From assembly GCA_964106645.2 (NCBI GenBank), contig OZ067042.1: a stretch of 64,000 nt of DNA. One strand, 5' to 3'. This DNA is from Podarcis pityusensis (lineage: Eukaryota). How positions within the stretch are numbered: position 1 is the stretch's first letter; each line of letters starts with the position of its first letter. Made by a program: the position numbers and the translations under genes. Shown in pieces: positions 25-49,600 of this stretch. The notes beneath the pieces are model-generated. The model was not told where the DNA came from and did not search any database. It was given only the letters and a program-made list of their open reading frames with translations.

Positions 25-1498
<1,474 letters not shown>

Positions 1499-1499
1499 C

Positions 1500-5600: not shown

Positions 5601-8600
5601 ACTATGTTGGATCTCACCCTTAGATAATCAAAGAAATTACAAGATAAAAGCAGTTATGGGAGTGAAAAATTCAATTGAAATGAATTTTTAACATAACTGA
5701 ACTATTGATAAAACATAATTTTTAGATACATTAAATATAAGATGGTGATAGTACATAGATGTCATGTGCAAATATAGAAAAATAAAAAATGTGTTCTGCT
5801 GAAGATCACAGAACTTAAGTTGTTTAGACAGTTGTCCCCCTATACATCTTTTGTATGATTCTAACCTTTTTCTAGGTTTCATGGAGATCAGGAGTGTTAT
5901 TATCAAGATGACTTGCGTGTACTATCAAGTTTAACCAAAAAAGAGCACATGAGAGGGAATGAGACAATGCTGGATTTTCGAACGAGCAAGTTTGTGCTGC
6001 GAATTTCCCGAGATTCTTATCAGCTATTGAAGAGACACCTTCAGGAAAAACAGAACAATCAGATCTGGAATATTGTTCAGGAACATCTTTACATTGATAT
6101 CTTTGATGGAATGCCTCGCAGTAAACAACAGATTGATGCTATGGTGGGAAGTTTGGCAGGAGAGGCAAAACGGGAGGCTAATAAAGCAAAGGTATGAGGT
6201 TAATAAATACGTAACATCATGAACATTTTGTCAGGGATGTATAGGTTGTCAGTTCTATGAGAGTTCTTGGCTTCTTTAGATCTGCAGTTGGTTAACAGTG
6301 TATGCTTCTGGATAAGGAAGAATTAGCTAAGCACTCTTATCATTACTCCTGACTGCAGCTCCTTGTGCTAAACTGGATGTTGTTCTGGATAGATCTCCAA
6401 TTTTCCAAAGCAGTTTAAATTTATGTGCCCCTTACTTGCCAAAATGGCAAGTATCTCTCTGACCATTGTCTTGGCATTAGAGATGACTTACATTGGATGT
6501 TTTCATATATTCTGCCATTGTTCAATATACGATACAGAAAGGCTAAGGAGTTACATTTGTCACTGACATCTGTGACAGATTAGTGTTCCAGTTTACATGT
6601 CATTTTAAAGCACAGTTAAAACTTAACTGTTGTTCCCACCCCCCAATTACTTGAAAATAGCTGAGAATTTTGGTGGACCACTCTTCATGGAGATGTATGT
6701 CTTAAATGAAAGCGGTTGTGGTCCACAGAGAAACATTCATATTTTTAAAAGTAATTACATTGATCTAATAAAATTTATTATTCTGCTCTACCAGTTCTTT
6801 GTTTCATTAAACTTTCCTTTTTTTAATTACATGACTCTTTTCTTCTTTTGGCTTGTAGGTCTTTTTTGGCTTATTAAAAGAACCAGAAATTGAGTTGCCT
6901 TTGGATGATGAAGATGAAGAGGGGGAAAATGAGGAGGGCAAGCCAAAGAAGAAGAAGCCAAAAAAAGACAGCATGGGATCAAAAAGTAAAAAGCAAGATC
7001 CAAATGCTCCTCCACAGACTAGGTAATGCTGAAAGTAGAAACGTCTCAATTCATTTTCCATCTTGCTTTTTTAGTCTGCACCAGTTCAGACTGAAGTGGG
7101 CAGCTGACATTGCTGAATAGAAAACTAGATATCACAGAAAAGGTTTCTACCCCAGTCTTTTACCTGACATCTAGCTTTGTTTGTGGAAGGTTGGCTTTTT
7201 TTCCTTCTGCATGGAGGAGCATTCAGTCATGTGAGCCCTCATGCACTCTGATGTGATACAGAGCAAAGGAAAGTTTACCATCTAGGAACTAGACTATAGT
7301 CAATATTTTGATACGCATTTTCTCAGTTAATTTGATTCTTAAAAAACGTTTTGGAGGTTCTCTTTCTATTAGGATAGGGGTCAGCAAACTTTTTCAGCAG
7401 GGGGCCAGTCCACTGTCCCTCATACCTTGTGGGGGGCTGGACTATATTTTTTGTAGGGGTGGGATGAATGAATTCCTATGCCCCACAAATAACCCAGAGA
7501 TGCATTTTAAATAAAAGCACACATTCTACTCATGTAAAAACATGCTGATTCCCAGACTGTCCGTGGGCCAGATTTAGAAGGTGATTGGGCTGGATCCGGC
7601 CCCTGGGCCTTAGTTTGCCTACCCATGTATTAGGAGATGCATTGCACTGATGTAAAAAGCTTGTATCATTTGAAGGAAAACCTTCCTCTATGAATATGGA
7701 GGTGTACGTAAAAGTAACTTCCCTTATATTGTAAAAGAATTGGTAGAGTTAGGATTTTCCTAATTTTGTCATCTTTTAGTTATTACTACTCAAGGAGCTT
7801 GTTCTCTGGGTTCTTTCCTCCCCAGACATTCAAAAGTTGAGTTCTTTTTCGGCCTCTGTTCAGTCAGTGTGCAGGTGTGATTTCCTGACATCAATGAATC
7901 TTTTGTTTAGTTTTTGGTTTTAAGTATGTTCTTCTGTATACAGAATCCCGCTTCCTGAGCTAAAGGATTCGGATAAGTTGGACAAAATAATGAATATGAA
8001 AGAAGCCACTAAACGTGTACGTCTTGGTCCAGACTGCCTGCCTTCCATTTGTTTCTACACATTCCTTAATGCATACCAGGTCAGTTGTGGGATTGGTAGT
8101 GATACCAAAGTATGACATTAGGCGGAGGGCAACTGGAGGTGGCTTTGCCAAAATGGCCTCAACCAAACGGGGGAGGCCTGGTGAGCTTAATTCTCCACTC
8201 CTTGTCTATAGCAGTGGCTCCCCAGTTTCAGACCATTCTCTCCCTGCCCTACCTGCAGATGTTGAGGGTTAAACTTGGCATGCAAAATATATTCTGTATA
8301 ATCCAGCCCTTCCCAGATACCTGTTCTATCAAATCTTGGCAAAGTTTAAAAAATGGATTGTGCCCTGACTTTGAATGAGTGGGACGTTGCTTGCACGGTG
8401 CAGTTTTTCATCCTCTTTCCTCTGGCCCTCAGGACAGCTGTGGAACTAAGTGTTGTGGGCTGAAATGGGAGATGGAAGCATAAGAAATTGGACAGAGACA
8501 ACTTGCCTAATGCAGAGCCGGAAGGCCACTCGTTGTAGTCAGGATACAACACATAATTAATACCAAAAATGTGGAAGTGCCTTGTGCAGGCTGCTTAAAT

Positions 8601-11600
8601 AATAGGGGGCTGCAAATCTTTTACTTTTAATGATGGCTTGTGGTTGCCCCACATGAAGCAAGATTCCTTCCCTTCTCTGCTTTTCACTTATTGAACAAAA
8701 CATGGGCAGGAAGGCTTTGTCTTACTTCAGGTTGGGAGGCAGAGATGGACAGCAAGGGAGTCTCACTATTTCGAGTGTCTCCAAATCCTGGTGTAAAGTG
8801 GAAAATTAACCTCTTCCCCTTCTTTCAAGTCCTCTGCATTTGCCAGAGGACTCAGGGGGGTTGGGTAAATGGTGACTACAAAAAATCAGTGCCAGCCAAA
8901 AGGTGGATCCTTTCTTTAAAAACAAAAAACTTCTGCCCCGGGTTAAGCAACATTTGCTTTGCATTTTTTTTTTTAATGGCTATACAGTATAGTTAATTTT
9001 GTAATATGGTAATTCTCACCTCTGTGTTCAAAACTAATGGTAGATGGCCAATTCTCGGGGAACAACACTGTGTGGTGATTACATTCTCAGCCCATATATA
9101 AAACTTCTTCAATGGTGATTTTTGCATGAACAGGGCCTTACAGCAGTGGACATTACAGATGACTCTAGCATGATCGTTGGAGGCTTTGCTGACTCCACTG
9201 TCAGAGTGTGGTCTGTGACACCCAAAAAGCTACGCAGTGTGAAATCAGCAGCAGGTAATCAGAATGAACTCTCGTCCTAATTTACACACTAACTGTTCAG
9301 ATAGAGGATCGCATGGAGGAAGGTTGCTCAGTTTAAATCCTTCCTTTGGAATAGCAATCCTGAGCTAATGAAATGAAATTTAATGCATCACAGCTTTAGC
9401 ATTCATATGTATTTAACTGCTGACAATAGAACCTACCCAAATTAAGACAAATTGTTTTTGCATATAACTACTGACATCAGGGGAAAAACTATACATAAGG
9501 ATCAATGCTCTATTTAGGGAAGATGTTGTGATACTTTGGAAATGAGACAATGTTTATTTTGTGTTATTGTACTTCCTTATTGTAGAGTACTGTGTTTTTG
9601 CCAAGGAAGATATGCTAATGCAGAGATTTTAAAAATCAAGTGGTTCCAGGAATGGAGCAGAAAATACAATTGAAAGTGTTCAGGCCTGTCAGCCTAGCAA
9701 AATGGTTGCCAGTGGTACTCTGGTATAAGCATCACAGATTTCAGATTTCAGTGAAGGCCTTTCCCAACCAGATGCCCATCAGTTATTTGGGACTGTACCT
9801 TGCTTCAGGCATAGCCAGCACATCTCTGTTGGCTGGAGCTGATGGATGTTATAGACAAACACATTTTGAGGGCATCTTGATCTGTATCATTGAAATTGAC
9901 AGAAAATCATGACTTAGGCCATGGTGGTATTCTGATACAATCAAAAAGGCATTTGCACTTTGGCAAGCACTACTAGCGATCTACATGAAGATAAACTTTA
10001 GGGTTTTTTCTTTTCAGATCTCAGTCTCATAGATAAAGAATCAGATGATGTTTTAGAAAGGATCATGGATGAGAGAACAGCAAGTGAGTTGAAGATTTTA
10101 TATGGTCACAGTGGACCTGTCTATGGTACCAGCTTCAGTCCTGATAGGTAAAACAATAGTTATTTGTGGGGGGATCTCTTAATACAGTATTCTTTAAGCA
10201 GAGTATCCACACTTACAAAAAGTATTTTTCTGGAGACTTTTGTACAATTTGAGTGTACCACCTCAGGATAGATGAATGAGACCTGATCCCATGGACTATG
10301 TAATTTATGTTGAGCATCAGAAGGAACCTCATGAGCTAGAAGCCTCAAACTGCTACAGGCGGTGGCCATTTTAGGCATGTCCAGTTAACATGTGATTGCC
10401 GACATATGAGTCCTTTTGGACCTGGGAGAGAACGGAACGAGAGGTGTGGCATGCTTATGTACACTCAACCAAAGCATGCAGAGGCCAGGAACAGAACCCC
10501 CACACGAAATGTTCCGTCTGTACTAGCATATTTTTAATCTGAAGGTCCCATCCTTCAGCTGAGCTATGTACAATATCAAAAAGCTTAGAATTGAAACAGT
10601 ACTGCACAATTGTTGTTTACAAAAGTGCAGTGGGTTAAGCCAATGTCCACTTAATATCTATGAATCTCAAACCCACCTCTAGCTATAGTCTCTGAAATGT
10701 TTTTGTGTTTTGGACAATGAAATATATACCTGTCAAAATAATGGTTTTATTTCTTCAAAGCATGATCAAGCTTTCTTAGATGCAGGAGGCTTTTCGCATA
10801 TTTTAAACTAGTAAATTATATATGGGGCAATAGATCTTCACATGCACATGAATAGATGAGTGTTCCATATTTCATATTATATCACTGTTTAAAAAATATT
10901 GTATGGAAAACATGAATATGAAATAACTTCTAAGAAACAAGGGGGATAACATTCTGAGGAGCATGTTTTAAAGTGGGCAGCATCCCATGTTGCTTGAGTG
11001 GACTTGAGCTCATGTAATTGGGCTTCAGCTACCTTACCCTTCCCTCCAAAACCCCTCCATCATCTCTGGACAATCCTGTAATTCTCCAGAGCAGTTTGAG
11101 GGTGTGTGGAGGGTGGGGGCTACAGGCAATGTTGGATACAACCTAGTAGTTTATAATTTTGAGGTTATATTGTTAAATTTTAATTCTTAAAAACAAATCA
11201 GGTGTCAGCCAAGCATCAAACAGTAACCAATCAGTGTGATGGCTAAGAGGATGTAAACATAAGAAATCCTTAGTTCCTGTGTCATCTCAGCTGTGATCTT
11301 ATTCTTTTAGCTTCTTAAATGCAAAATGGGGATAATACTCTCCTGAAGTGTATTAAAAGCTTTGATGTCTTGAAATGTGTTATTGAGAGGTTTAAGATTG
11401 AGTATAGCTTAAAAAATACCTTTTCTGATTTATTTTTTCTGTCAGGAACTACTTGCTATCATCTTCAGAGGATGGCACTATCAGACTGTGGAGCCTCTTA
11501 ACCTTTTCTTGTCTAGTCGGATACAAAGGACACAACTACCCTATATGGGATACACAGTTCTCTCCCTATGGATATTACTTTATATCTGGAGGTCATGACA

Positions 11601-14600
11601 GAGTGGCTCGGTAAGAGTCAGCATGAGTTTCCCATCTCAATGTAAATCTGCAGTTCTGTCTTGTCAGTTGGTGACATCTCCTTGTTGCTGTCTGCTATAT
11701 TTTAGGGCAAGGGTAGGGAACCTCTAACCCAAAGGCCAATCTTGGCCTGCAAGGTCCTTTCCCCCGAACAACACCCACTTGTATCTCAACCGATATCAGT
11801 GGGTGATGTCAGCTGATGAAGGGGGGGCAGGGTTCAATCCTGCAAGGATCTGTTTTGCCACCGTGTTCCCTGTGGGGAACATGCTGGTGAAGCAGACTCC
11901 TTCAGCCAGTAGGACTGAACTCTTTGCTTATCAGCTGGTGAATGGAGAGTTCAGTCCTTATAGTTGTTGCTTTGCCAGTGTGTTCCCAGCAGAATGGCAC
12001 TGGTGAAGGAGACCCCTCCCCCTGCCTCAGATTAACTTTGATAGGTGAACCCACCTATCAGTCACCTGACATTAGATGATTGATGCCAAAGTTAACTTAT
12101 TTTGTATATGGTATACGACCCTTCTCTTGCCAACCTAGCAGTTCGGAAGCACATCAAAGTGCAAGTAGATAAATAGGTACTACTCCGGTGGGAAGGTAAA
12201 CGGTGTTTCCGTGCACTGCTCTGATTTGCCAGAAGCGGCTTAGTCATGCTTGCCACATGACCCAGAAGCTGTACGCCGGCTCCCTTGGCCAATAAAGCAA
12301 GATGAGCGCCGCAACCCCAGAGTTGGTCACGACTGGACCTAACGGTCAGGGGTCCCTTTACCTTTGCCTATACAACCCTTATATAAGACAACCCCTACTT
12401 TTTAAAACCCAAAATTAAGACATCAGGTTTTGGGGAGGACAACATGCAAAAACACACACCCCATTGCATGTCTGGCCTGCTGTGCCAAAAAGGTACCTCA
12501 TCCCTGTTCTAGGATATATCCTATAAGACATTTGACTAAAAATAGTACTAATTGCCATTTAGGGTTTTTTATACTAGAGGGAGAATTAAATTTGCCCCCC
12601 CACCCCCTATCTCTCTTGACTCTTCAGCTTAGTTTGGAGGCACTTGTGAAGCACACATTCCCTTGCCGTCAGGACATCAGCAGTCTTGTTATGTATTTCT
12701 TGTTTCACATTTTTGAAATGTTCTTTGTACTGGTTTAAGCTTGTGGGCTACGGATCACTACCAGCCTTTGCGGATCTTTGCTGGCCATCTTGCTGATGTC
12801 ACATCGACGCGTTTTCACCCAAACTCCAACTACGTTGCTACAGGCTCAGCAGATAGGACTGTGCGGCTGTGGGATGTCCTGAATGGGAATTGTGTCAGAA
12901 TTTTCACAGGACATAAGGTAAATTAATCTGAGATTAACACTGAAATACATTAGTTGCACAAAAATGGTAACAGGAGATGGCTGAAACCTTTGCACACAGT
13001 ACTAGAAATTAGTTAAAAACTGACCTGTTGTTCAAAGTTTCCTTTTGAATAGATACTGTTTCTCCATAGGACCACAACCTATCTTTTAACTTCCCACTGG
13101 GAAGTAAGAGGTCACCTCAGAAGAGGTGGTGCAGAGTGCTCTGAAATGACATTATTTATTTGAAGGGTGCTTGCTAAGTAAAACAAGGCATACTGTTGAC
13201 GGTTTTGTTTTTGGATTTTATATATAGGATTTTCTGTAGCTTTGAATTGTTATCATTTCTAGTGTAATTTACCTTGAGGCTTCTTGTAGAAGGTGATGCA
13301 TAAGTGTTGTTGTTAATAGGCTTATTTTTGTTCCAGGGACCAGTTCATTCATTGGCATTTTCTCCTAACGGAAGATTCTTGGCAACTGGGGCAACAGATG
13401 GAAGAGTGCTTTTGTGGGATATTGGGCATGGTTTGATGGTTGGAGAATTAAAAGGACACACAGACACAGTCTACACACTCAGATTCAGTAGAGATGGAGA
13501 GATCTTAGCATCAGGTATTGAAGTCAATTTTGCTCTGTTTAGTGGAACAATACTATCATCTGGAATCATAGACTTGTCTCTATTTTGACATCTCAGTCTT
13601 CCATTTAGTGAGCAATTGTTAAAGCATATTCATTTAATACTTTAATTTGCTAGCATTGTCTGTTAACTTGAAAAACTGAACCTAAAGGACAAGATGGTGC
13701 CACACCCAACTTTCCATGTATAGAAGCAGACATGACTTGCAAATGGTGAGGGGAGGTATCGTGTACTGCACCTGTGGGAAGCCAGATAGCTTGGGGGCTG
13801 CAGGAGAGGCCGCATGGCGCACAGCTTTGTCCATAAACACGCTGCTTCTACACTGCATCCCCCAGCATCCACCACCTGAGGCTAATAGGCCAGGCCCAAA
13901 CTTCATTTTATGCAATTATATACCTTTTGAAGCAAAGGTACTATTTATGTATTTACCAAAGTGGGCATGCTAAATTCGAGCAGGCTTTGCAGAATACCTT
14001 AAATATTTTCCCCCTCAGAATTTGGCTTTTTTTTTTTAACCTATTATGAACAAGGTGTGGGTCTTTTTGAAAAAGTAAATGGGTTTAGAAGTTTTGCCTT
14101 CCTGCTTATTCATGCTCCCCCACTGTAATTTTATTAGCATCAGCCCCCAATCTATCCAGTGAAGGGATTTCATACTACAGAATACAAATATAACTTAATT
14201 ATAATTCCATTTATTTTTTACTATTACGAGGGTTTCAGCTTGTATCTTTTAAACTATAAATTGTGAGAGTGGGACCTGCATTTTCTGTCCTGTTACCAGA
14301 ATTTTAGAAACATTGGGTCATATTCTACATAGTCCATGCATGAGTGAAATGGGTTCCGACTCATGCATTGGGACTTCCTCTCCTCCCTGCAAGCAGGTTG
14401 AAGGATCTTTAAAAAGGCTTTATCTTTGAAAGGCTATTAACTACTACAGAGTACTTAGCAGTGAATATAAGAAGTGATTAGTAGTTTTGTAGATCCTCAG
14501 CTTGACGAATGGGTTGTGGTGTAATAGCAGAAGTTTTTTCTTTATATTCAGAATTAAATGTTATGTCCTGTTAAATTAGAAGAGTTGTTTTCATTTTTCC

Positions 14601-14821
14601 TAGGTTCCATGGATAACACGGTAAAGCTATGGGATGCAGTGAAAGCCTTTGAGGACTTAGAAACAGATGATTTTACCACAGCCACTGGACATATAAACCT
14701 GCCTGAAAGCTCTCAAGACTTGCTGTTGGGTACATACATGTCCAAATCGACCCCTGTCACACATCTTCATTTTACTCGCAGAAATTTGCTTCTTGCCGCT
14801 GGAGCATACAGTCCTCAGTGA
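2646..14821 (+). CDS. TAF5: TFIID subunit 5 (LisH/NTD2 plus WD40 repeats), 11 exons, 804 aa
   Basis: Exons 2646-3219, 4317-4551, 5876-6191, 6859-7022, 7944-8079, 9134-9254, 10018-10147, 11446-11610, 12740-12917, 13337-13514, 14604-14821. All introns GT-AG, phases consistent, total 2415 nt. Motifs: DRQTLLAVLQFLRRSNLRE, YPLFVHMYLELV, WD40 repeats (GHLADV...LWD), C-terminal LLLAAGAYSPQ. Confidence 0.97.
3438..3530 (+). mobile_element. L2/CR1-group LINE 3' tail with (TTA)n microsatellite
   Basis: GGAAGCCG...GGGCAGGGTATAAATAAAT followed by (TTA)n; a reverse copy of the same tail lies at about 40620-40745. Confidence 0.6.
3548..3639 (+). mobile_element. Bov-B/RTE LINE 3' end fragment
   Basis: GCCTGGCATTCTCTGGTCCATGGGGTCATGAAGAGTCGGACACGACTAAATGACTAAACAACAAC is the typical Bov-B 3' terminus with a (CAA)n tail. 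Confidence 0.75.
7375..7627. mobile_element. hAT-type MITE
   Basis: Perfect 8-bp TSD TATTAGGA (7367-7374, 7628-7635); imperfect TIRs TAGGGGTCAGCAAACT / AGTTTGCCTACCCATG. Confidence 0.8.
12124..12368 (+). mobile_element. Sauria SINE, 5'-truncated
   Basis: GCCAACCTAGCAGTTCG...GTAGATAAATAGGTAC...GGGGTCCCTTTACCTTT tail; TSD TATAC(G/A)ACCCTT at 12112-12123 and 12369-12380. Confidence 0.8.
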
Positions 14822-15755
14822 ACTACCAAACTACAAGACTTGATTGTACAAGTCTCATGTATATCTTAGAATAACTTGAATTAATGAAGACCACAATGTA
14901 CATATTATACAAATGAACTGAACTTGTCTGCCAGAACAAATGGTGCAAACTGATGATGATTCAAGCCACACCTTCAGAAACTGCTATTTTAAACCCCACC
15001 CCAACCCCAGTGTTAGTGCTGAGACATTGACATCATAAAAATAGGGGAAGAAACATATAATGTGGTATGGCTTTTTAAAAGAAGTAAACAGTATGTGGGA
15101 ATACCTTGCTTAACCTTGTCCACAAAATGACAACAGGCACTACAAAACTGTAGTGCCAGTTGCATAAAGCAAAGTTGTTTGAACAACAATTTAAAAGCAC
15201 TTAGTTTGGCATTAACACAGGTTTAATAAGTACCCAAAATTTTCTTTCGGAATAGGTTTGTTCATATAAGTTCTTCAAGAGTGGAATTTGTCTCTATGGA
15301 GCTGTTACTTCTTTATAAAACTGTGAAGAGGCCTAAGTAGTTATCTGACTTATGTGAGTAACCTAGTTTCTTCAAAGCTGAAAAGCACAAATTGAACAAG
15401 ATTGAACAGTTCTAAAACTTCAATTACCAGTAAGCGGCATTTTAGGAAACGCAAACAATACTTGAAACCTTTAAAACTGAATTTTTGCGTTCCTAACTAT
15501 TTTGGATACAAAAAGTAGACCAACCTCCCACCACAAGAATCTTGATTCACCCCCCCCCCTTAAGTATTTGCCAGGGGGAGAAATACTTTTTGAGCCCTTT
15601 CTATAATGACAAAGCATAAGTGTCATTTATGCTTTCTGTGAAAAATTGTGCCACAGCTATACACAATTTGTTGAAAACTAGTATGGATCCATTAGTTTAA
15701 AAACATACTGCCATGGTTTTGCATTATGTACAGTTTTATACTTTTGATATTTTAT

Positions 15756-15761
15756 AATAAA
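15756..15761 (+). terminator. Likely TAF5 polyadenylation signal
   Basis: AATAAA about 0.94 kb after the stop, with upstream TGTA and downstream T/GT-rich sequence. Confidence 0.6.
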
Positions 15762-18241
15762 ATCTATTTTGTGCCTGTCTTTCAGTTTCATTTGCTCACA
15801 AGGGCCTTGTTTTTACCAGTCTGAACCTATATTCTGTAGTTCCAGCAAAAGCAGCCCTTGTACTACAAGCTTTTATCTTCAAAGACAAAGCAAATGAGAG
15901 AATCATGATTTTAAAGGGGGGAAAAGTGAGGCTGTTAAATATTTCTTGTGGAAGATTTCCACTTACATAATTCCAGAAATGGTGTAATGCTTTGTCAAGT
16001 TTACAACTGGATTTTTAAAAGGGTTGTATGTATAGAAATCAGTGTTTCAGGGAAGCCAGTTAGTCACATCTTTAAAATGGGGGTGGGGAACCACAGGCCT
16101 GAAAGCCAAATGCAGTCATCTGGGCCTCTCTGCTTGCCCTTTGCAAGTCCTCTCAGGCCACAAGCCTACCACAGCCATATTCTAGTGGCTGTGCTTTGTA
16201 CTCTTGAACAATGCCTCTTTTTATTCCCTGGATGGAGGCTAGAGGGATGTGTGTAGAAATTAGCAAACTGTACAAAAGTAAAAATTGCATTCTTTGACCC
16301 TGCTCACTACTAGCCTCTAGGTGACTGATCAGAACATTTGTCCATCAGAAGGGGCCTGCAGGTCACTGGAAGTACATCATCTGGGATGAAATGTATATGC
16401 AGCATCATAAAGGGTGTTTCCTAAGAGGCAAACGGCAGAAAGTGGTGGAATTTAGGCCTGGTTTGAGTCTCAACACTAAATTATGTTTTTGCATTACATA
16501 AATAAGCAAGCCACTTCCTGCAGGACTGCAAGATTAGAAGCTTCCCTTTCTAGTTTCAATTTAATTACATGTACTGTTACATTTGAAGTCTAAACAGTAG
16601 TTAATCTTTGCTATGGATTGGTGAATGACCAGTTCATAAACCATAGTTAAGACTGCCCATTTTGTCTGCATTTGGACATAATAAACCACAATTGGTTAAA
16701 AGCAAGTGAAAGCTTTGTTATCCCACAATGGATGCAACCCACGATCCCAATTACCTATCTGCATTTCACTTTGGGTTGAATTAAGGCTGTGCAGAGTGGT
16801 GCAGACACATATTTGCTCAGAAATAAGATCAGTCAAGTAGTCTTAACACCTATCATTCAGCATTATCCTCAATGTAAAAGCAGCCCTGCCAGATCATTGA
16901 ATTCCGTATGTTGACGAATGCCTGTAGATTAAACAGGTTATATTAACATGTAGTATTATGCCATACTCTGCTCAGCACCATCCACATGTTTAAGACACAG
17001 GAAATAGGATCATGTTTGTTCCTCTCTTACTACAAATGGAACACAAATGGTTGTAATGAAAGCCATAATTTACTTTTGGAACAGAATGCAGTGTAACATT
17101 TATCCCAGAGATACAGTAATGCCTAAGGATGTATCCATCATTTCTCAGCACAGATTGAAAGGGCTCCTTAACTGAATTGTACACACTAGAACTCTGCACA
17201 CTGTTTATATGTAGGACCGTCACTTCTGTAGTGGCAATGTGTACAGATGACAAACTTCATCACTGTTCATGATTTATTGAAGTGTACATCAACTTCTAGT
17301 TATATTATGTGCATGGTCCAGTGTCAACATGTCAACCTGTCAAAAAAATAAACATTCAGTTACTACATCTTGCACAACTTCTATTTATTAACACACAGTG
17401 GCAGTATTTTGCCCAAACCAGGAAAAATCATATACTGGCTTGTTCTGAAGCCATTAACCAGTTTCCTGGCTCATACAAAATGGGAAATTACAGTTAACAG
17501 AAGACTTCCTGGTTGGTTTGCTGGCTCACACATTTAAGGCCTATTAAGCAGATATATGATCATACAAATGGGGATACACTGCTGACATGAAATAACATGC
17601 TATTTAGTTGGGCAGACTAAATATGCAGACTAGGTATGCTCACAACTGGATGTCAAGAGGATATGAAAGCAACCACTTCCCCTTATTTCTGCATTTAGAA
17701 ACTCTTGCCATGCCACTCAGTGAAGAACTGAGTGACATAAAATAGGATAAAAATGCACATGCTGAGCAATTGCTGCTATCTGAACTATCAACTTTTCCTT
17801 AGTCAACTCTATTAAGACATCTATGAAATTTAAACTCATGGCAAACATCCCAGGTTTCAAAAACAAGCAAATTAACCTTGCATATCCTGTATCAAAATTC
17901 TGGTACTATGCATCTGCTCCTGGTGTTTGATTAGCTGAAGAACAGAGTGTTACACAAATTCAAGATCACTACACTTTGTTATGCCATTTAAGAAAGCCCT
18001 TCTATGTTCAAGTTGAGATTAGAGAGACAGCAACATATGATAACATTCCTGGTAAGAAATAACTTCATTCATGTTGTAATCTGCTTAAAGCCCTATGAAA
18101 TGATTTACTCATAACAATACAAGTGCTTAAGATCCTAAACTTGCATTTGACATTTCATGTACAGATACAGAGATTTACCTGGATCTCTGGAGGTTTTAAG
18201 CCCTACTGGCATCAGTAAAATATGGCAGACACTTACCCATC

Positions 18242-25200: not shown

Positions 25201-28200
25201 TCTCCACACAGCCAGTAACATGAATTTCTTTTGGCTTGCCATCTGTATTTTGGAGGAAATAAGCTTTGAATAGTTAAATGGCTGTATCACAACCCCTTCA
25301 GTAATCAACATCCTCCGTAGCATGTTCAAAAATTCAGTTGTATTGCTTACAGCAGAACATTTTGTTTGGCCAAAGTTTCAGAGTCAGTGACTAGATATTG
25401 CTGTTGCCGTTTTGATATGTTTCTTATTTTAGTCTTTATCCATTAAACTATCTTTTTGCAGGATCTGAATTCTCTCTCAGATCTCTTTACCCCAGGAATG
25501 CTGGTCAGATGTGCTGTGGTTGGTGTGGAGAAGACTACTACAGGTCGTCAGAGTATACAGCTAACAATCAACCCCAAAGATGTCAACAAGGCTTTGAATG
25601 CTGCCACTCTGAGACCAGGCATGGTATGAAACATATGAATTATCTGTTTACGCCTGCCTTTTCAAAATTATGTCATGTTGCTTACAAAAAATAAAATATA
25701 ATAAAGCAAAATAAAAAGCACAAAACTACAACAATTAATAACACTTTAGCAGATAAATAGCTTTGAAATGTAAAGTAACAATTGAAAGAAGCAGTAATAA
25801 AAACTCAGTGTGATGAATTAAGATGTCTGGATAAATAAAAATGCCTTTACTTGGTGCCAGAAAGTCATCCATGTAGGTGCCAGGTATACAGACCTAGAGA
25901 GGGGTTTCCATGGAAAAGAACCTCTCTGGTATCATCACATACCCTAACCTCAGTAGCTGGGGAACCTGGCAATGGGCATCATCAGATGAGCTCAAAACAT
26001 ATCATCTGTTAATTTTTTGTGATTTGATATGGGAAAATGTTCTTGTGCCTTTTATAAGAATGCAGGGAATAGAATTTCAGCAGGTGCAGGTGCAGATATC
26101 TTGTCCTAATATTGCTGTGAAGGGTATAGGTCTCATTTGTGGAAGCCCAAAGTCCTGTTTCTTTTCAGGGAAACTTGAGTGCTTGAGGAGGGAGGAACAA
26201 CAACAAGGAGTCTGATAAAATTTCCTTTAAGCTTACACTTCTTCTCCAAACAGCTGCTCTCTGGCTGCATCTCTAGTGTGGAAGATCACGGCTACCTTAT
26301 TGACATAGGCATCCAAGCAACAAAAGCATTTATTCCTCGTCAGAAAGCCAAGGCCTACTTGCAGTCAGCCAGCAAAGGTATAACTATACTTAGGAGTACT
26401 GGGTTTAAGGCAGGGGGAGAAGCAAATGGGTGGTTTAGAGAACTGTAAAATCTTAGATTTGGGAGTTACCAGAGGCAGAATTTACTGCCCAATGTTTGTG
26501 TGTGTGTGTGTGTGTCTGTGTCTGTGTGTGTTTGAGAGAGAGAGATTCTTGAGTACATATCATTGTACAGTAACTTATAAGTGGCCAGCTGTTGCCTGGC
26601 TTCTCTTGTTTAGGAAGCTTTTTATGCAAGGTGGAGTATTTCAGTCTAGGATGAAAAGCCTTTTAATGTGATGAACATGTGAAAGGATTTCAGAAGTAGC
26701 TGGTGCCAGGAAATAATGGCCATAGTGATAGAAAGGTAATGTCAAAGCTTTGCTGATAAGTGATGATAGTTGCATGTGTTGGTCTCTTAGGGACTGAGCT
26801 GAAGATAGGCCAGTACTTCAACTGCCTTATTGAAGAAGTAAAGAATGGTGGGCGGATAATCCGCATGGCCATTGATCAGTCGGAGGTTGCTGCAGCTATT
26901 GCCACAGAAGAACAAAACTGGTCCCTTGGCAATTTGCTACCTGGGCTGGTGGTGAAAGCCCAGATTCAGGAGGTAAGCTGTTTTTTACGAATTAATTTAC
27001 TAATCTTATTTTCTTCTCTCTTGGAAAAGTACAGTGAAATTAATAAATTCTCTAACACATCTGCATTATTTTTTTTAAAATGATATTTATTGAATTTTTT
27101 TTTTAGAATTACAAAAAAAAGACAAAACAGAAAAATAAAAAATAAAAATCCATCATTCTCAAATTTTCAACTTTCATTACCTTCTTTCTTTGACCTCCTC
27201 CTCCTCCCCTTTTTTGTATCCTAATTAATAATTATCGCAGCAAATCCTTTCCATAATTCATAATATTCTGTCATTACATTACCTTAATCTATTTTCATCT
27301 TATCTTATAGAAAACCTTAAAACTTAAAACTTAAATCTTATTTTTACCAACTTCTCATAACCATAATATTCTTACCTAATTCTTTAAACATTTTTGCTAG
27401 AGCCAAGTAATTTCATTTCAACATCTTTCCAACATTCATCAATTTTATAAAACAATCCTAATGACAAAAAATAATAAAAAAAAATAAAAACAATCCAATC
27501 TTCATCCAGCGTCCCTTCCTCCTGGTCCCGGGTTTTGTCAGTCCTTTTTCCCATTGATCTAGCGCATTAACCTGGTAACCTTATATCCGAGGCCCTTAAG
27601 TCTCTTCCATGTCCCTTCCGCGGCTCTTCTTCATATTTTCCTTTCCCTCGTGGGAACTCCAGTTTGGTAATGTTTTTGACCCTTTTCAACAAATCAGCCC
27701 CTTTAAACTCCATATGGTATTTAAGAACATGTTTCAGAATCCCTCCAAAATTGAGAGCCCCCACAGCTCCAAACATCTCACGGCCCATTGCCAGACTCGG
27801 AAAGTCCAAACATCCCTTCATAGGGGGGTCAATCCAACCCCCCATTTCCAAACCAATCCAAACTTTATCTTTCCAAATCTGGTTTTTTCCAAGTTCATTT
27901 GTCAAATCCAAAAGCTCATGTTCCTGCAGGGCCACAGCTCCCTCCATCTCTGGCGCCCAAGATTCAGCAACGTCCTCTCATCTGTTCTGTCAGGGCACAC
28001 TCCTGATTTAGTTCCTGGGTGGGCTCCATATAGTTTCCCACTGCCTGTTCAAAAGTTCTGACCGCATTAGTCATCAAATCCGTCTTCTCATTTAACTGAA
28101 CCAGTAGGGCATTTGTTTTACAGAGAGCACGCAACAGAGCTTCTGAATACATTGTCCTACAAGGTCACAAGTCTATTCCCACGATTGTAATCTGTGACAG

Positions 28201-31200
28201 CTGCAAGCTCCCTGGAATTAGTTACAGTTTCACAGTCTCCCTCTAGGGGGAAAACTTCTATTTGTTCTTTCTTTTAAGGACAAATTTAGCAACAAAGTCT
28301 CTTTTTTAAGATATTTTGTCAATATTTATTCCTTTAAAATGTGAAAGGAAACAGTGGAATCACTATGTTACTCTTCTTTTAGCTATCTGTCAAAAGCATT
28401 TGTCTCTGGTCAATGAGCTTCAAACATCAGTCCTGACACCCCGCTCCAGGATCAGGACGGTGGAAAGTTACTTTACTTTAAACCCACTTCTGCAGGTTTA
28501 AACAGTCCAAAAAAGATCCCCCTTCTTCTCCTGCTACCGAAGGGGGGGGGTTCAACAATTTTAAATGATGAAAGCCAATCCTTTAGAAGAGATTTTCTGA
28601 GCTCTAGTTTACGTTGTCTTTGCTTTATTCTGTTTACAAAGAAACGGAAGGCTGACTTCCTGTTTAGACCTTCCCGTTTCAGTACCAAATTGAAGTAAAT
28701 TTTTAAGTCCAATTCCTTTCTACTTGCCAGTCCTTATTTAAAGTCCAATTGTTCAAAGTTTAAGTACTCACGGGTGATTATTTTAGATGCCAAATTGTCC
28801 CAGGAAAAAGGCAGCGCTCTCCGGCAACGGCTATGCGGCTTCGCTCCACGGAAAAAGCAGTTGACTCACAGCACCGCGCCACTTCCCCCTCTTCGCTTCG
28901 GAGCCCGTTAATGGGTTCCTTTGCGGGTTGGGGGGCGCCAAGGGTGCCCGCCGAGTCCCATGGTCACAGGCTTCATCCGCCTGTGATTTCTAAAAGGGTC
29001 CCCGCTTCGCCGTAGCGGAAAAGACCCGTTTCGCGCGGAGCTGGTCCCGCCAGTTCAGAGGGAGTCCGCCATTGCCGATGGCGCCACCCCGGAAGTCGGG
29101 CCACATCTGCATTTTAAACAGAAGATGCACCCGCTTTTTCACAGCTTTGAATTGTTCCAGTCTGACTACTGAGGTTGGTTAAAATATAAGGATAATTGCA
29201 AATGTAGAGGCTTTTTGTTGGAAACATCTATGACCCTGTGTCTGAACCATATGAGGTTTTTGGTTTGTTTTTTCTTCTAGCTTAACCTAGATTTTAAAAA
29301 ATCTCTATAGGGTGATATTCAACATTAGCCCTACTCAAGCCACCCCATTGAAGTTAATGGACATGACTTAGGTTCATTAATTTCAATGTGTCTACTCTGA
29401 GTAGGACTTGGTTGATTACCACCCTAAAATGTTATTAAATCTAGTGATTTACAGCACTAGAAGACATAATTTGGAGCCACTAGCAAATTATGTCTTCTAG
29501 TGCTGTAAATCACTAGAAGACACAATTTGGAGCCACTAGCAAAAGAATCATTAATATTGTATACGTATAAGAATATAATACATATAAACCATAAAACACA
29601 TTTACATTTCATGACAGCCACATTAGAACTCAATATTCATTTAATATTCAGATCTGTCAGAGAAATTCTGTTTAATTTTACATCTTGCAGGGCAATTTTT
29701 GTTTCCTTTTGAATATTTCCAGGTGACTCCTTTTGGAATTTCTCTCAGTTTTCTGTCTTCCTTCTCTGGACTTGTGGACTACATGCATATGACTTCTACA
29801 AAAACAAGAAACTACTCACCAGGTCAGACGGTAAGTGATTTTATAGCAAGGCTTAAATTGTGTTAAGGTGGTGCTGCAGGACTTGGTTAAGATATGAATT
29901 GAACAAGTGCATCTCTCTATGGTTTCGCCATAGTCATGGAGGCTAGAATGTTTAAGAGAAGTAAAGTACCATTCTCAGCACATTCCCTATTTTTCCTACA
30001 AACTTAACATCTCACCCCCCCTTTTGTGTTTTCCCCTCCAGGTGAAAGCATGCATTCTCTTCAACAATCCTACCTCCAAGGCAATACGCCTATCTCTGCG
30101 CCCAGTTTTCCTCCAGCCTGGCACTCAACTTGGCAAGCTGTCTAGTGATCAGATTGGCAGGGTAGTTCCAGACTCCACAGTTGAGACCTTTCTCAAAAAG
30201 ACTGGTGCCATCTTCAAGCTGGATGGTGGCTGCCTAGCTTTTGCACATGTAAGTAACTCGATGCTGATTGCACCTTGTAGGAAGGTAGACCCTTTCAACC
30301 ATCATGGCTGATGTTTGGAGAGCAGTACATCAGCATTTTGCCCGTTACCGATTCAATACATAGATGTGTCTTGGCATCTGTTTGTGAATGTGTTATATGA
30401 TGTCTTAATTTGTCCTGGAGAAGAGCCCAGAGTCTGAAGGTAGCAAAGAGCTTTTCTAGATTCCTTTGTTGTTTGCTCACCCTTGTTAGATGCAATCATA
30501 ACCTCTGTTGTCACATTGTAATTCATATTGGAAGGTAGAATCAGATAGATGCAGAAACTAGGCTTTGCTTTGCTTTCTGGATTACAGCAGGGTTAATCTT
30601 AAACTAGAAAACTGTCCGGATTTATAATTTAATCTTCATTTTCTGCACTACCTTTATACCTCTTTCAGATAAAACATCTTTCAGATACTGCCAAATCTTT
30701 CAAACCTGCAGCATTCAAGCCTGGAAGCAAACATAAATGCCGAATTATTGAGTACAGCCCAATGGATGATGTGGTGGTGGTGTCTCTCAAACAGTAAGCT
30801 TTAGAGTGCAATTTGAGTGAACCAATCTGTGACGTGTCTTTATATACTCATGTTTCAAGCATATCTCCATGTCTTAAATTCTATGCATAGATGGAACTTC
30901 CTTATGCCTAACAGATAATCAATACATTTCAGTTGGGTCATAAGTCCCATTGCTTTCAGAACAACTGAGATGGCTACATTATGCACACCTGTGCAGTGGA
31001 TTGCATTTGCACATTTTAAAAATTGGTTCCATAGGTATCCAAACTTTCTGCCTTCAGGTGATGTTTTGCTACTTAAGTTACAAATGAAATTCTGTTGAGG
31101 TCCTTTCTAGCATCTGATGAATTTCTGTCCAGGCACAGCCATTAACCCACCCCATGTACACCAAGGCTAGATCATGGCACACAATGTGAATGATATTTAG

Positions 31201-37200: not shown

Positions 37201-40200
37201 AGACTGTAGTTGCCAAAGTGACCAGCATTGACGAGGAGAAGCAACGCATCCTGCTGTCCCTGAAGGTGTCTGAGTGCTCCTCCGAGGATTCTGTTTCTGA
37301 GAGTTTCTGTTTGCTGCACAAATACTTCAAGGAGCTGCAGGAGATCAAGAGTATCACGAGTGGAAGAGGTAAAGGCTGTCATGTTGATAAAAGATGGCCC
37401 ATGGAAACCTTGTGTTGGCCACATACACACAGTGGATGCATGTGAGCGTCCTGGTTTTGGGGAACAGGCTTGGAGCACCTTTTCTCAACATTTTGTCTGA
37501 ATTCAGGAGGCCTAGGAACTTTTCAAACTTTTATTTAAAGAGAGGTTCAAAGATTCAGTTTCAGGTAAAACATCTAGTCACTTGGGGTGGTTTTCTGCTA
37601 TATGTGATTGCCAAGTGGGTTTTGCTTAACTTGCAGTTGGAGAAAGATTACATTTCTTTGACTGGCACTTTATTTCTGGGTGACTGGCTCATTTGCTATG
37701 AGCTTAAAAGACCCCATTTTCCCCTTCCATTTTCATATTGACTTAAAGATACAGTAAGAAAGTTACTTTCAGGCACCAGAGCATAATTCCTCAAAATAAG
37801 GGAATCCACTCATTTTTAATAGTTAATCCTTCTTATACTTACTCTGACTTTCTATAGTTCAGCGATGAAACATCAAGCTGCAAATGGGACTTAGTTCTTT
37901 CTTTATCCTCAGATGATGTTGGTGTGATAGTTCAGCGATGAAACATCAAGCTGCAAATGGGACTTAGTTCTTTCTTTATCCTCAGATGATGTTGGTGTGG
38001 TTCAAAAAGTCTGTGAATTAAAACCTGGGCAGAGGCTGATGCTAACGGCTCGCAAAGTCAACACTGATGGTTCAGCACTATTTGATAGCACCTCTGTTTC
38101 TGGCTTAACTATAATGGCTACTCATAGTCACCTTGGAGGTAGGACATACTTTGTGGTCTTTCCCCCCTTGTCTACTTTGTCCTGATATACTATATTTTGC
38201 TCTTTGGGTTGGAAACAAATAATTGATTGCAAAAAGTGGAGTCTTTTTGAACAGTCTGAGCAGCAGAAGTGTGTCTGAGACCTGAGTGAATTCTTGGTTT
38301 TTCTCCTGACTCAGCTATCAGTGATGTAATGTAAATAAATAAATAGTGTCTCTTACTGAAATACTGAAATGCAGTTGCTTCATTTTGCCCCAGTTATATC
38401 AAGCAATAATCTTATGGTGCATGTTTGTTTGTTTTTAAAGGCAAAAACATTGCCCAGGGTGAAAAAACAAGAGCTGTGGTTCTCTGCATTGATTCCCTAG
38501 AATCAAAGGTCTATGTGTCGCTTAGAGAGGAGTTGCTGTCCCCCAAGCCTAAGAAGGTATGATTAGCCTGAATTGGCTTTTATGCTGGATACTAACCTGT
38601 GTAGCTGGTTAATAACAGAGTCATAGAAGAGAGGTTCATAGAATACCATAGAAATGAGCAACATATGAAGAGATTTCAATGGAATAACTAAGCCAGGGGT
38701 GGTTGACCCACCCGCCAGAGAGCTGTTTTTGCTTCCTAGTCAAATTTTTCTGCCTCCAGCAGCAGCAAAGAGAAAGTCAAAGTAGACACAGTGTGGGGAG
38801 GAGAGATATCGGTATGTCTGTACAAGAGTGATGTATAGCCTTGATTACCACTTGCATATGACCCCTGGAGGACTGGGCAAAGGTGAATACAGTCCTTGGG
38901 ACCAAAACAATTGGTTAGCTTATATTCAAATGTCAGGGGGCCATAATGAGGAGGAGGAAGCAGCTTTCCCTTCCTGTGTCCTAGAAGGAATAACTGGGTT
39001 TAAGCTGCAACTTCTTCAATATTATTTGATCCTTAGGAAAAATTGATCACCTGTTAGGCACACATCTGAGAAAACCCCAGGGAGTGTTGGCGTTTTCTGC
39101 TTTTGCCTAGGAATTCAGCTGGGGCCTAAAAACGAAAAAATGTTGTGTCCTGAGAATTTCCTGGAAATTCCCTGGAAAGTGCATTGCTGGAGTTTTTCTG
39201 ATGAGGGTAAAACATCTGTCAGGAATGCTTTTAAATAATCGATTTAAGCCTTGGGCCAAAATGGCTGCTGAAGTCTGTACCAGGTTTTGTGTGTGTGTGT
39301 GAGTGAGTGACTTTCTCTGGATGTTATTTCTGTGTTTTCCAGTTAAAACAGAACTCTCAGCACCAAGCCATCGTGCAGCATGTGGCTACAGAGCATGCAG
39401 TTGTTTCACTGGTAGGAAATGGTCAGCTGGTTGCCATACCTGTGGCTTCCCACTTCAATGACACTTTCCGCTTTGATTCTGAAAAACTGAAAGTGGGACA
39501 GTCGGTCCTAGTGGTTCTGAAAACTCTCCAGCCAGGTGACTGTGGGCTCTTACTTGCTGTTCAAGATCAGAAGAAGAGAAAGGCTGTAATCAGGTCACGG
39601 CGTGAATCTGAAACACTTGGGGAAACTTCGGCCATTGTGAATCACTCGCTGTGCTTGGGAGATGTGGTCAAAGGAACTGTCAAGTCAATCAAGCCTACTC
39701 ATGTCCTAGTGGCAATTAATGATCAGCTGATCGGCTCCATTCATGCATCCCAAATCCTGGATAAAGTTTCCATAGGCACCTTTCCAACATCAGTGCTAAG
39801 AGTTGGACAGCAGTTGACTGCTCGGGTGATTGGGGGCAAAGACATTAAAAATCACAGGTAAGATCCCCCCAAGCTTCTGAGTGCCTTTTCTGAGTTTTAG
39901 CCAATTATCAAATTTTAGTTCAATGTTCTAGCAGGCACAGAACTTTCCAGATCTGTGTCCTAAGTGCAAGTGTTGTCCTCATGCATTTATTGCCCTGTTA
40001 CTAATTTTCAGTCCAATTAAAGCATAGTCACTTGGCTCTCTTCCTACCTGGATATAGACCCATTTCCATCTACAGCTGACGAGGAGGCAACTTGCAATTC
40101 TCTGTTGGAGAGAGGTTACCCAGAGTGGCTTTTCTCCTCCCACTCACTCTAGAAGCAGGACTTAGGCAAATTAAGGAAACACTCACTTTTGTGTGGAAAA

Positions 40201-46600: not shown

Positions 46601-49600
46601 GATACGACCATGTTGAACCAGAGGGAGCAAAGCTCTGACAGCGAAGAAGACGACGACGATGTTACAGAGTCCACGGTAGAGTATCTCAATGTATTTTGCT
46701 TTGCATAGTGCTTGGTATGCAATCCTGTTTACTTAGGCCTCTTAAGAGAAGTACTATCTTGCTGGCCTAGAAAGTACAAAGGCAGTGTTTTGCTTCTAAA
46801 ATTAGCCTAGCTCTATGTCAGGAATTAATTTGTGCAAAAGGCCTTTTGTGTTTTAGGCTTGCATCTGGGATTCATTGATCACTTATTTATATATACCTAT
46901 GTCTATAGAGACTATCCGTATAAAGTTCCTTTTCTCTAAATGTGTTGCTCTGAAAAGAATGTTTTTGTATATGCAGCTGAATTTTGAGCCATGCCCCTAC
47001 TCGCAAAACTCTCTATCCTTTTCAACTAATTGGCTTCCTCTCCTGTCTTGGCCCTCTGTTTAAGACCAAGAAGCAGACAAAGAAAAAAAAAGAGCTCGAG
47101 AAGCAGAAGGCAGAGAAGGAACTCTCCAAACTTGAAGCTGCCCTGATGGATCCCAGCCGGCAACCTCAGACAGCCGACGACTTTGACCGATTGCTCCTTG
47201 GCAACCCAGACAGCTCCATCCTCTGGTTGCAGTACATGGCTTTTCACCTTCAGGCTACGGAGATAGAGAAAGCAAGAGCTGTGGCAGAAAGGGCACTCAA
47301 AACCATCTCCTTTAGGTGAACTGCTTCCCCTTATCATCCATAAAACCATCTCCTTTAGGTGAACTGCTTCCCCTTATCATCCATTTTTAGCTTTTAGTTG
47401 ATGAGCTGCTATTGCCCATGCATGCTTAGCTTGGCTTTATCTCGTGGGAGGGGCACCTGCAGAACAAAGTGGGCAATTCTGTTACTTTCTCTCCCCTCCC
47501 TTCACAGACGTTGTCCAGTCAGATCTCCTGCTTTCTCTTCCAGGTGGATTTGTTGAGCAAAAGGCTAGCGTTGAGCCATGTGTAGGTAGGGTGGTTATTT
47601 GTGGTCCCTCTTTCTTTCAGAGAGGAGCAAGAGAAGCTGAATGTGTGGGTTGCACTGCTGAACCTGGAGAACATGTATGGCACCGAGGAAGCTCTAATGA
47701 AAGTCTTCGAAAGAGCCATCCAGTACAACGAGCCTCTGAAGGTCTTCCAGCAGCTGGCAGACATCTACAGTGGCTCTGAGAAATATAAGGTGAGGCTGGG
47801 TTTACAGTGTTGCCGAGAGAAAGATCACTTCTGCTCACTGAGTCTGGCAGGGAAATTGCTTGTTCATTCTGTTCTTGGGAAGAGCCCACCGTGGTTGATC
47901 CACCTGGATCCTGCGCTTCCATCTACCCTGTGGATTTATCATGCTGTGGATTTTTCCTTCATTTTGGACAAGCATCAGGCTGATTTCCCTACGTTCCTCT
48001 TTTTCATCTAAGCAGTACCACCACATTGCCTCTTGCTCTAGCTTGTTGGCAGCATAATATTCTCTGGGGCCCATGAGTTGGGTTCTGTACTCCAAGATAC
48101 ATACAGTTGTGAATAGCGTACAAAGGCAAGGGAGAACCACAGGATTTAAAGTGTGTTTCCATGGTTTGAACGATCTTCTCTCCTATGATTTTTATTTTCA
48201 GCAAGCTGATGACTTGTACAACACAATGCTGAAGCGCTTTCGTCAAGAAAAGTCTGTGTGGGTGAAGTACGCCACTTTTCTCCTGAAAAGAGGCTTGGTG
48301 GAGGCAGCTCATAAGCTCCTCCCACGTGCACTGAAGTGCCTGCCAGTCAAAGAACGTAAGAACCACTTCGCTCTTCTTTCCTATGATTAGCATCTAAACA
48401 TCATGTTGGTTATTTATGCAGTACACAGGTAATATCTAGGAAATGCAGTATGTGCTGTGAATCTAAAAATATCCGTAGCCATTGTTAGCAAATTCTCTTT
48501 CAATAATTTTATTGGTACTTTCCTTTAAAAAAAAATACTTTTCAAAGTTAATCAGTTAGGGATTGGGGCATGGGGAGATTTCAAAGTTAATATAAAGGAC
48601 TGTATATTCCTGGATGCTGCAGTTTTACCAATGGCTTGAGAAATTCAGACAGGATTTTCATGGCCTAGATTGAATGCAAAATACCCTTTTGCATTGATTG
48701 CATAATTTCATTTCTTTCCCTCCCGATGCACTGAAGCAAACCCAAACAATAAAAAAATTGCCAACACAATGAACAATGCACATTTTATGAAACACGGGGT
48801 CGGGTGTTTCATAATTTTAGCTTTGTTGCCTACTCTGGGAATTTGGTAGCATGGAACCCCAATTCCTTGCTAATATTATTGCCAAAGTAACTACAGCATC
48901 CTTGAACTCTAAGCAGAGGCAGTGATGACTAGCCAGAAGAACACTTCTAAAATGCACTTTTGCAGATCTGGATCTGATATCAAAGCTGGCGCAGCTGGAG
49001 TTCCAGTTTGGTGATCTGGAGTATGGCAAGACCGTTTTTGAGAATACCCTGAGCACCTACCCGAAGCGTACAGACATCTGGTCAGTGTACATAGACATGA
49101 TGATCAAACATGGCAGCCAAAAGGAAGTACGGTGAGTACTAGCATGGGAAAGTGGGCTGGTACTTCTGAACTTCCTAGGAAATGATGTAAATACAACATA
49201 AGGGATGCTTCTTGGCCTTAAATCCAGGGAAGCTGGGAAGCTTGATTTCATGTGAGCAAATATTTACAACTCTGAAAGGTGCCGCAGGAAGTGAAGCATT
49301 AGGAACCTGTATTAGGCCTGCTATTTACTAGAGGAACCCATTGGCTTTCTTTCTCAATACTTTCCCTTCTCTCAGCCTGGAAGCTGAGAGTCTAGCATGA
49401 GAACCTTCATACTCATAGGCCATGATTCCCAGTTTTCAGAAAAGGCACAAAATGTATGTAAATTTTAATTGCAATCTGGTAAAAAAAAATATTGTTCCAT
49501 AGCACAGAAATTTAAAGAACTTGCTGGTATGAAAACGGGGGTGTGGGGCATGTGGCTTCAGAGCAACACCATATGATTTTTGTTAACAATCAAGGGAATT

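Follow-up and report, generated by a model that had tools for sequence, protein, structure and literature searches.

The window analysed here is a stretch of 64,000 nucleotides (nt) from the lizard Podarcis pityusensis (contig OZ067042.1 of assembly GCA_964106645.2). Its minus strand carries, at 27068-29101, a short retroelement with L1-type ends and a single open reading frame (ORF), bounded by two exact copies of a 12-mer. The 5' copy of this target-site duplication (TSD) lies at 29102..29113 and the 3' copy at 27056..27067, both given for the minus strand, and no match longer than this 12-mer occurs between the zones around the two junctions of the element. On the element strand positions 29117-29112 read TT|AAAA, the consensus of the L1 endonuclease. 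Because of this reading the true TSD may take in 29114-29115 and be 14 bp long, the 3' copy then carrying one mismatch. A first-pass annotation, made from the letters of the window, had described a complete element without reverse transcriptase (RT), flanked by a 12-bp TSD at a TTTT/AA target. This description was borne out: both ends are present and ORF2 was not found in the element.

Positions 26300-29900 were compared with the contigs of four of the 23 listed sequencing runs (X1, X3, X8 and X12). X1, which comes from organism A and may be the source sample, matched both filled junctions with no differences. The other three runs (organisms B, C and E) carry the empty site, which the first-pass annotation had named as a check: their contigs join 27055 to 29102, retain one copy of the TSD and skip 2046 nt. 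In X3 the short side of the join measures 18 letters; in X8 and X12 it measures 255. The flanks differ from the window at 5/586 positions in X3 and at 6/506 in X8, or about 1%. Since the site is empty in relatives this close, the insertion of this copy is recent. The youth suggested earlier thus applies to the insertion; the family is sufficiently old to include members at about 30% protein identity. Insertions of the element are usable as markers between close species.

The 5' untranslated region (UTR; 28153..29101, minus strand, like all features of the element) is 949 nt long, close to the leader of about 950 nt first estimated, and is likely to contain an internal RNA polymerase II (Pol II) promoter. 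Five small frames, each opened by an upstream ATG and 5-22 codons long, lie within it. Near its start are the motifs GACTTCCGG and ATGGCGG (29066..29097), which confirm an L1-type 5' end, as both match the consensus of lizard clade-1 L1 printed in PMC5381506, spacing aside (16 nt in the element, 10 in the consensus). The CpG-rich 5' end also stood up to analysis: 28701..29100 is a CpG island with 31 CpG in 400 nt and an observed/expected ratio of 0.95-1.02, against 0.28 for the whole window. The 3' UTR (27068..27566, 499 nt) has a GA-rich start, T-rich tracts and 6% C. It carries the polyadenylation signal AATAAA (27086..27091) and an A-tail of 8 nt (27069..27076), both of which had been recognised at the outset together with the T-rich character of the region.

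A Pfam scan of 23 translated frames for RT or endonuclease (EN) gave no match at the cut-off, in agreement with the first reading; the best hit (E 0.0017) was to an unrelated family. A tblastn search with the C-terminal, ORF2-like part of protein P0011 gave no matches, and only 499 nt separate the stop codon from the 3' TSD. Autonomous L1 was ruled out for the element, as ORF2 with EN and RT was not found. A short interspersed element with a Pol III head of the tRNA, 7SL or 5S type was ruled out as well, because Rfam found nothing within the element even at an E-value limit of 0.1 and the 5' end is L1-type.

The ORF occupies 27567..28152 and translates into 194 residues, with a +1 break marked by one X and the first frame alone giving 62 residues; the earlier estimate of about 195 codons with a single frameshift near 27977 was therefore accurate. 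The break lies at 27974..27980. It is interpreted as a frameshift of this copy because other copies carry five more bases (an indel at 27976 in X1, X3 and X12), and proteins P0002 and P0003 read through at this position. The extra five bases are explicit in only about one fifth of the X1 depth, so their loss is perhaps not private to this copy. The closest protein is P0002, a hypothetical protein of 201 aa from Podarcis lilfordi (88%), which in itself makes a Podarcis wall lizard the likely host, and the relatives in general are annotated as hypothetical Podarcis proteins. Four family matches were obtained among 176 candidates in a first protein search. A profile of four relatives, run against 1.84 billion representatives, gave seven matches. 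Two were its own members and two the distant members P0007 (212 aa) and P0009 (215 aa, in a cluster of four); of the other three, one is a chimeric model, one a repeat artefact and one P0011. P0010 was discarded as a repeat artefact, and P0006 and P0008 were excluded from the alignments as chimeric gene models. A 12-residue C-terminal motif followed by the stop (27567..27605) is identical in P0001, P0002, P0004 and P0005, and is conserved at 10/12 positions in P0007 and 9/12 in P0009; P0003 (174 aa) ends before it. P0002 and P0005, from the same species, share 44% identity. The P. muralis model P0006, named 'olfactory receptor 14A16-like', derives its first 108 residues from the element family (67% to P0005) and is likely a chimeric prediction. 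The family explains some of the 'hypothetical' and chimeric gene models of Podarcis.

The first-pass annotation had called this an orphan ORF, a view that had to be abandoned. The N-terminal half of P0011 resembles L1 ORF1p, and P0011 led to P0016, a P. lilfordi protein of 370 aa labelled as an L1 RRM-domain protein. The Atlas model of P0016 matches clusters of PF02994 (TM 0.78-0.79), and human ORF1p structures take nine of the ten top Foldseek ranks for a model of P0016 built in this analysis, with E values (0.007-0.035) above the 0.001 bar. Judged by its predicted structure, P0016 is an L1 ORF1p. P0002 is collinear with it (BLASTP, 23% over residues 1-175, E 4e-6), and hhalign of the family alignment with the ORF1p alignment gave 98.2% and E 3.2e-14 over 190 columns, which answers the profile comparison proposed as a check. 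The comparison was split in two to exclude a coiled-coil artefact. The coil part (27979..28152, a predicted helix corresponding to P0016 ~56-131) gave 88.6% and E 2.7e-6 by itself. The second part, in which the first half of the RNA-recognition motif (RRM) is joined to the RRM end and the start of the C-terminal domain (CTD), approximately 27640..27865, gave 94.1% and E 1.3e-7. Neither score was reached by any of 100 column shuffles, and reversed queries remained far below the real scores in both comparisons. Compared singly with P0016, four of six members beat all 2000 shuffles. Other routes were negative: Pfam gave nothing at the cut-off for the ORF, for its relatives or even for the true ORF1p P0016, sequence searches of the PDB missed human ORF1p, and an Atlas search with P0002 returned no usable matches. 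The earlier statement that no RRM is recognisable consequently holds for Pfam but not for profile comparison. From these alignments the ORF is best described as a degenerate, collinear, internally deleted L1 ORF1p. Two P. muralis TRIM39-like models, P0018 and P0019, end in about 225 residues of L1 ORF1p RRM and CTD; they are either annotation chimeras or real TRIM-ORF1p fusions.

The alignment with P0016 also reveals what has been lost. The start of the family protein corresponds to an internal methionine of P0016, Met56, so that the first 55 residues are gone, and a search of the leader for a remnant of this N-terminus found none (the best score was reached by 6/300 shuffles, in 9 tests). Fourteen residues are missing from the coil, 40 from the RRM (P0016 ~214-253) and about 20 from the CTD, the last gap being smaller in P0005. 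The RRM gap recurs in all seven members that were aligned, which suggests that it arose once. The model of P0016 (mean pLDDT, the predicted local confidence, 50.9) shows the gap to span a strand at 220-227, a helix at 230-241 and the following segment, that is, the third strand and second helix of the RRM and the segment after them. On this model the family protein is unlikely to form a canonical RRM. AlphaFold2, applied to six sequences, predicted one confident helix at residues 4-41 (pLDDT 67-81).

The reading frame itself appears to have been maintained. In five complete relatives it is open between the matching start and the same C-terminal motif, with lengths of 196-215 aa and mutual identities of 26-68%. 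A neutral simulation with substitutions only, without indels, and 4000 frames per identity level left 97/4000 frames open at 66% identity, 21/4000 at 46%, 4/4000 at 34%, 3/4000 at 26% and 3-8/4000 at about 30%. Among the 12 indels listed, ten lie outside the ORF and eight of these are not multiples of three; the two inside are a 3-nt change and the break of this copy. A variant in X1 and X8 lacks 54 nt net relative to the read-through form, in frame, and matches an 18-residue gap of P0004. A rearrangement within the ORF in X12 (from 27964 back to 27580), present in a single copy, was taken as decay and left out of the subfamily indels. The pattern of frames suggests that the ORF is probably under selection and that the replicating lineages kept it open.

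The summed contig depth of the runs gives an order of magnitude only, hundreds to thousands, and not a copy number. Depth in the element bins was 59,132-317,669 in X1 (flank about 22), 24,363-145,146 in X3 (flank 12.7), 1,298-17,662 in X8 (flank 13.2) and 29,785-273,163 in X12 (flank 55.5). In all four runs every element bin, the ORF included, was 100 to 14,000 times deeper than the flank. The element is a member of an abundant family, as the multi-copy prediction of the first-pass annotation had it. A one-off internal deletion of a normal L1 was rejected because depth is high along the entire 2 kb. No second copy was found within the 64-kb window, and scans of JGI metagenomes gave no copies of the element. 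In organism C (X8, 27147-29082) the depth relative to the flank is about ten times below that in organisms A and B, while its flanks are about as close as theirs; this is possibly a lineage-specific amplification. Depth is highest at 28720-29082 and 27510-27630, unlike truncated L1 copies, which peak at the 3' end, and these two regions may be shared with other families or with shorter derivatives. The lizard group is described in the accessible text of PMC5203782 as having low L1 copy numbers.

With these data the element can be classified, with high confidence, as a HAL1-like, ORF1-only, non-autonomous L1 derivative of lacertid lizards, which upholds the class proposed in the first-pass annotation and gives it an ORF1p ancestry through hhalign. 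HAL1 is defined by structure in the portions of PMC5753468 and PMC3627910 available to us, and the element has the corresponding features: L1 ends with ORF1 ancestry, no ORF2 found, and a replicating family. It was filed as HAL1-like and not as carrying a canonical ORF1p because a complete RRM and CTD are not present in the family and PF02994 is unmatched. The mammalian HAL1, in the sources as far as they were accessible, is likewise derived from L1, has ORF1 without ORF2, kept its coding capacity for long and is presumed to be mobilised in trans. The host of the present element is a lacertid and its parent a lizard L1, and we therefore infer an origin independent of mammalian HAL1, which PMC13756887, in its accessible portion, places throughout mammals. 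A reptilian HAL1 was not found in the full-text literature searched, which leaves most subscription papers out of reach, and HAL1 is not mentioned in the main text, as far as accessible, of PMC5381506, PMC5203782, PMC12129022, PMC10214862, PMC9498476 and PMC11303007. A Repbase library of Podarcis exists (PMC10214862, available part), and it is quite possible, though less likely than not, that the family already has an entry, perhaps as plain L1.

The closest autonomous counterpart is clade-1 L1 of lizards, for which we rely on the available text of PMC5381506. Long 5' UTRs mark this clade and T-rich 3' UTRs are found in lizard L1. The element shares with clade-1 L1 the motifs GACTTCCGG and ATGGCG, a long 5' UTR near 45% GC, a T-rich 3' UTR, AATAAA, an A-tail and the ORF1p homology. 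It differs in lacking ORF2, in its motif spacing, in having one CpG island (38 CpG in the leader) where clade-1 L1 has two with an average of 56, and in its broken RRM and CTD, which are very conserved in the autonomous elements. Its protein has about 200 aa, compared with 370 aa for the local ORF1p. Other bipartite long interspersed elements, HeT-A, Ag-Sponge and HAL1, similarly combine 5' and 3' parts of such elements with one ORF1-derived protein; HeT-A derives from Jockey, Ag-Sponge from CR1, and neither is described in the accessible part of PMC5786205 as having lost its nucleic-acid-binding core. Lyosin of reptiles and birds is also an ORF1p derivative in which the N-terminus of the coil is best kept and the CTD or parts of the RRM are lost, but it is a single domesticated host exon and not a mobile multi-copy family with TSDs (PMC12129022, in the portion available).

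The reading we favour, and consider rather probable, is that this is a recent, frameshifted copy of an abundant ORF2-less L1 derivative with an internally deleted ORF1p, and that an autonomous lizard L1 likely supplies the ORF2p that copies the element in trans. By analogy with L1 biology, the CpG-rich 5' UTR would drive Pol II transcription, a promoter being suggested by the presence of both lizard clade-1 consensus motifs at the 5' end, and the RNA would be polyadenylated. The ORF2p of the driver L1 would then nick TTTT/AA and reverse-transcribe from the tail. Such mobilisation in trans is likely in view of the TT|AAAA target, the TSD and the A-tail. The N-terminal helix is predicted to co-assemble with the coil of the driver's ORF1p during translation, which would pull the element RNA into L1 particles and replace RNA binding by an RRM of its own. 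Co-assembly seems to us the single most likely mechanism by which the ORF is kept, although we advance it only tentatively. In the accessible part of PMC5786205 the proteins of ORF1-present elements are proposed to form multimers together with their counterparts from the autonomous partner. A bolder version would make the family a non-mammalian half-L1, among the most active wall-lizard retroelements, whose ORF1p gave up RNA binding and persists as a coiled-coil adaptor that hijacks L1 ORF1p and ORF2p in the manner of a defective-interfering particle; we regard it as unlikely in this full form.

It might be asked whether the protein matters at all. A frame of about 200 codons could serve merely to keep the RNA stable and engaged with ribosomes, at which nascent ORF2p can be captured, with the C-terminal motif acting as an RNA element. 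We find this doubtful, while recognising that it would explain why frame and length persist as identity drops to 26-30% and internal blocks vanish, and why no confident fold is predicted; the depth peak at 27510-27630 in all four runs, which indicates that this DNA is widely shared, is also in its favour. It fits less well with the fact that distant members keep ORF1p-like residues where the coil starts and where RRM and CTD join, or with the conservative nature of the changes in the motif of P0007 and P0009. Nor is a structured RNA element evident, as the sequence surrounding the stop codon has a poorer fold than every one of its 200 shuffles. Alternatively the ORF could be a decaying passenger of a family that moves by its L1 promoter and 3' end, the open frames having been selected by the protein search. 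This copy is indeed frameshifted, the RRM and CTD are gutted, and family proteins are few in the databases (the four matches among 176 candidates and the seven profile matches, one of them spurious). The idea is nevertheless improbable, because neutrality, even with indels left aside, rarely keeps a frame open between the shared start and the motif at about 30% identity (3-8/4000), and because such large subfamily indels as were seen preserve the frame.

Two further explanations concern the origin of the family. The short ORF1 might belong to an autonomous L1 lineage, the 2-kb form being a frequent derivative or ORF2 having been lost in this copy alone. The lack of contigs spanning the element would permit this, and the 5' bins are deeper than the ORF bins, so that the 5' UTR is perhaps shared with other families. 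However, depth stays high across the junction of ORF and 3' UTR, a different copy in X1 bridges 27440-27568, and the gene model P0008 has ORF and 3' UTR pieces in order. A search for longer proteins, in which 8000 candidates were scored, brought up an olfactory-receptor chimera and nothing else, a weak argument, and autonomous L1 keeps its RRM and CTD highly conserved (PMC5381506, same portion). Such a lineage is very improbable. Least credible of all is an origin by retrocopying, either from a host gene or from a domesticated ORF1 gene. The relatives are annotated as hypothetical Podarcis proteins, and ORF1 exons have been domesticated in reptiles according to the available text of PMC12129022, but the L1-type 5' motifs and the abundance along the full length fit a transposon family, divergent subfamilies occur in one species (P0002 and P0005), and the gene models look like predictions derived from transposable elements.

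Several observations weigh against the reading we favour. The neutral simulation leaves 478/4000 frames open at 81% identity; moreover, protein searches return only open frames, and the thousands of copies inflate the openness argument for close members. P0009 alone is matched by 472/2000 shuffles in the comparison with P0016, and P0004 is marginal (6/2000). No confident fold is predicted past residue 41 (AlphaFold2 mean pLDDT 42.7; Atlas predicted TM-score 0.19), members do without another 18 and about 33 residues, and constraint at the residue level looks loose from the alignments. The coil's C-terminal half is said in the accessible part of PMC12129022 to be necessary for trimers, and it is the less conserved half in the family. 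The whole element was spanned by no contig in the four runs, and DNA of a partner L1 was not seen in the data. In human cells a HAL1-like reporter needs an RNA-binding-competent ORF1p in cis (PMC11260458, in the portion available), and the lizard family protein, to judge from its model, is probably not competent in this respect. Because that reporter fails with an RNA-binding mutant of ORF1p, the lizard family is surprising, and any role of its protein calls for caution.

The same accessible text of PMC11260458 states that the capture of ORF2p by non-autonomous RNAs made by Pol II is unresolved. An abundant family with half an RRM in its ORF1p separates the candidate roles, namely RNA binding, coil assembly and translation itself, and supplies natural deletion variants with which the roles of ORF1p can be tested. 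If our reading is true, it also extends the HAL1 design beyond mammals.

The element lies about 80 nt into the intron after a likely host exon at 26791..26972 on the plus strand, recognised by its AG and GT splice sites, and is antisense to the host gene. A downstream frame of this gene matches Rrp5 (E 3.5e-9), and we take the gene to be PDCD11/RRP5. Long frames in 1139-55996 resemble PCGF6, TAF5, PDCD11 and CALHM2; Rrp5/PDCD11 alone was tested. Positions 29366-29408 hold a short high-copy repeat piece with a depth of 1.6e4 to 7.2e4 across the four runs and hundreds of loose contig ends on either side in each of them. A perfect 34-bp inverted repeat at 29440-29517 lies inside a 56-nt tandem duplication (29440-29543), for which Rfam gave only hairpin matches far below the gathering scores. 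Two other tandem duplications, both perfect, measure 73 nt (37854-37999) and 43 nt (47299-47384).

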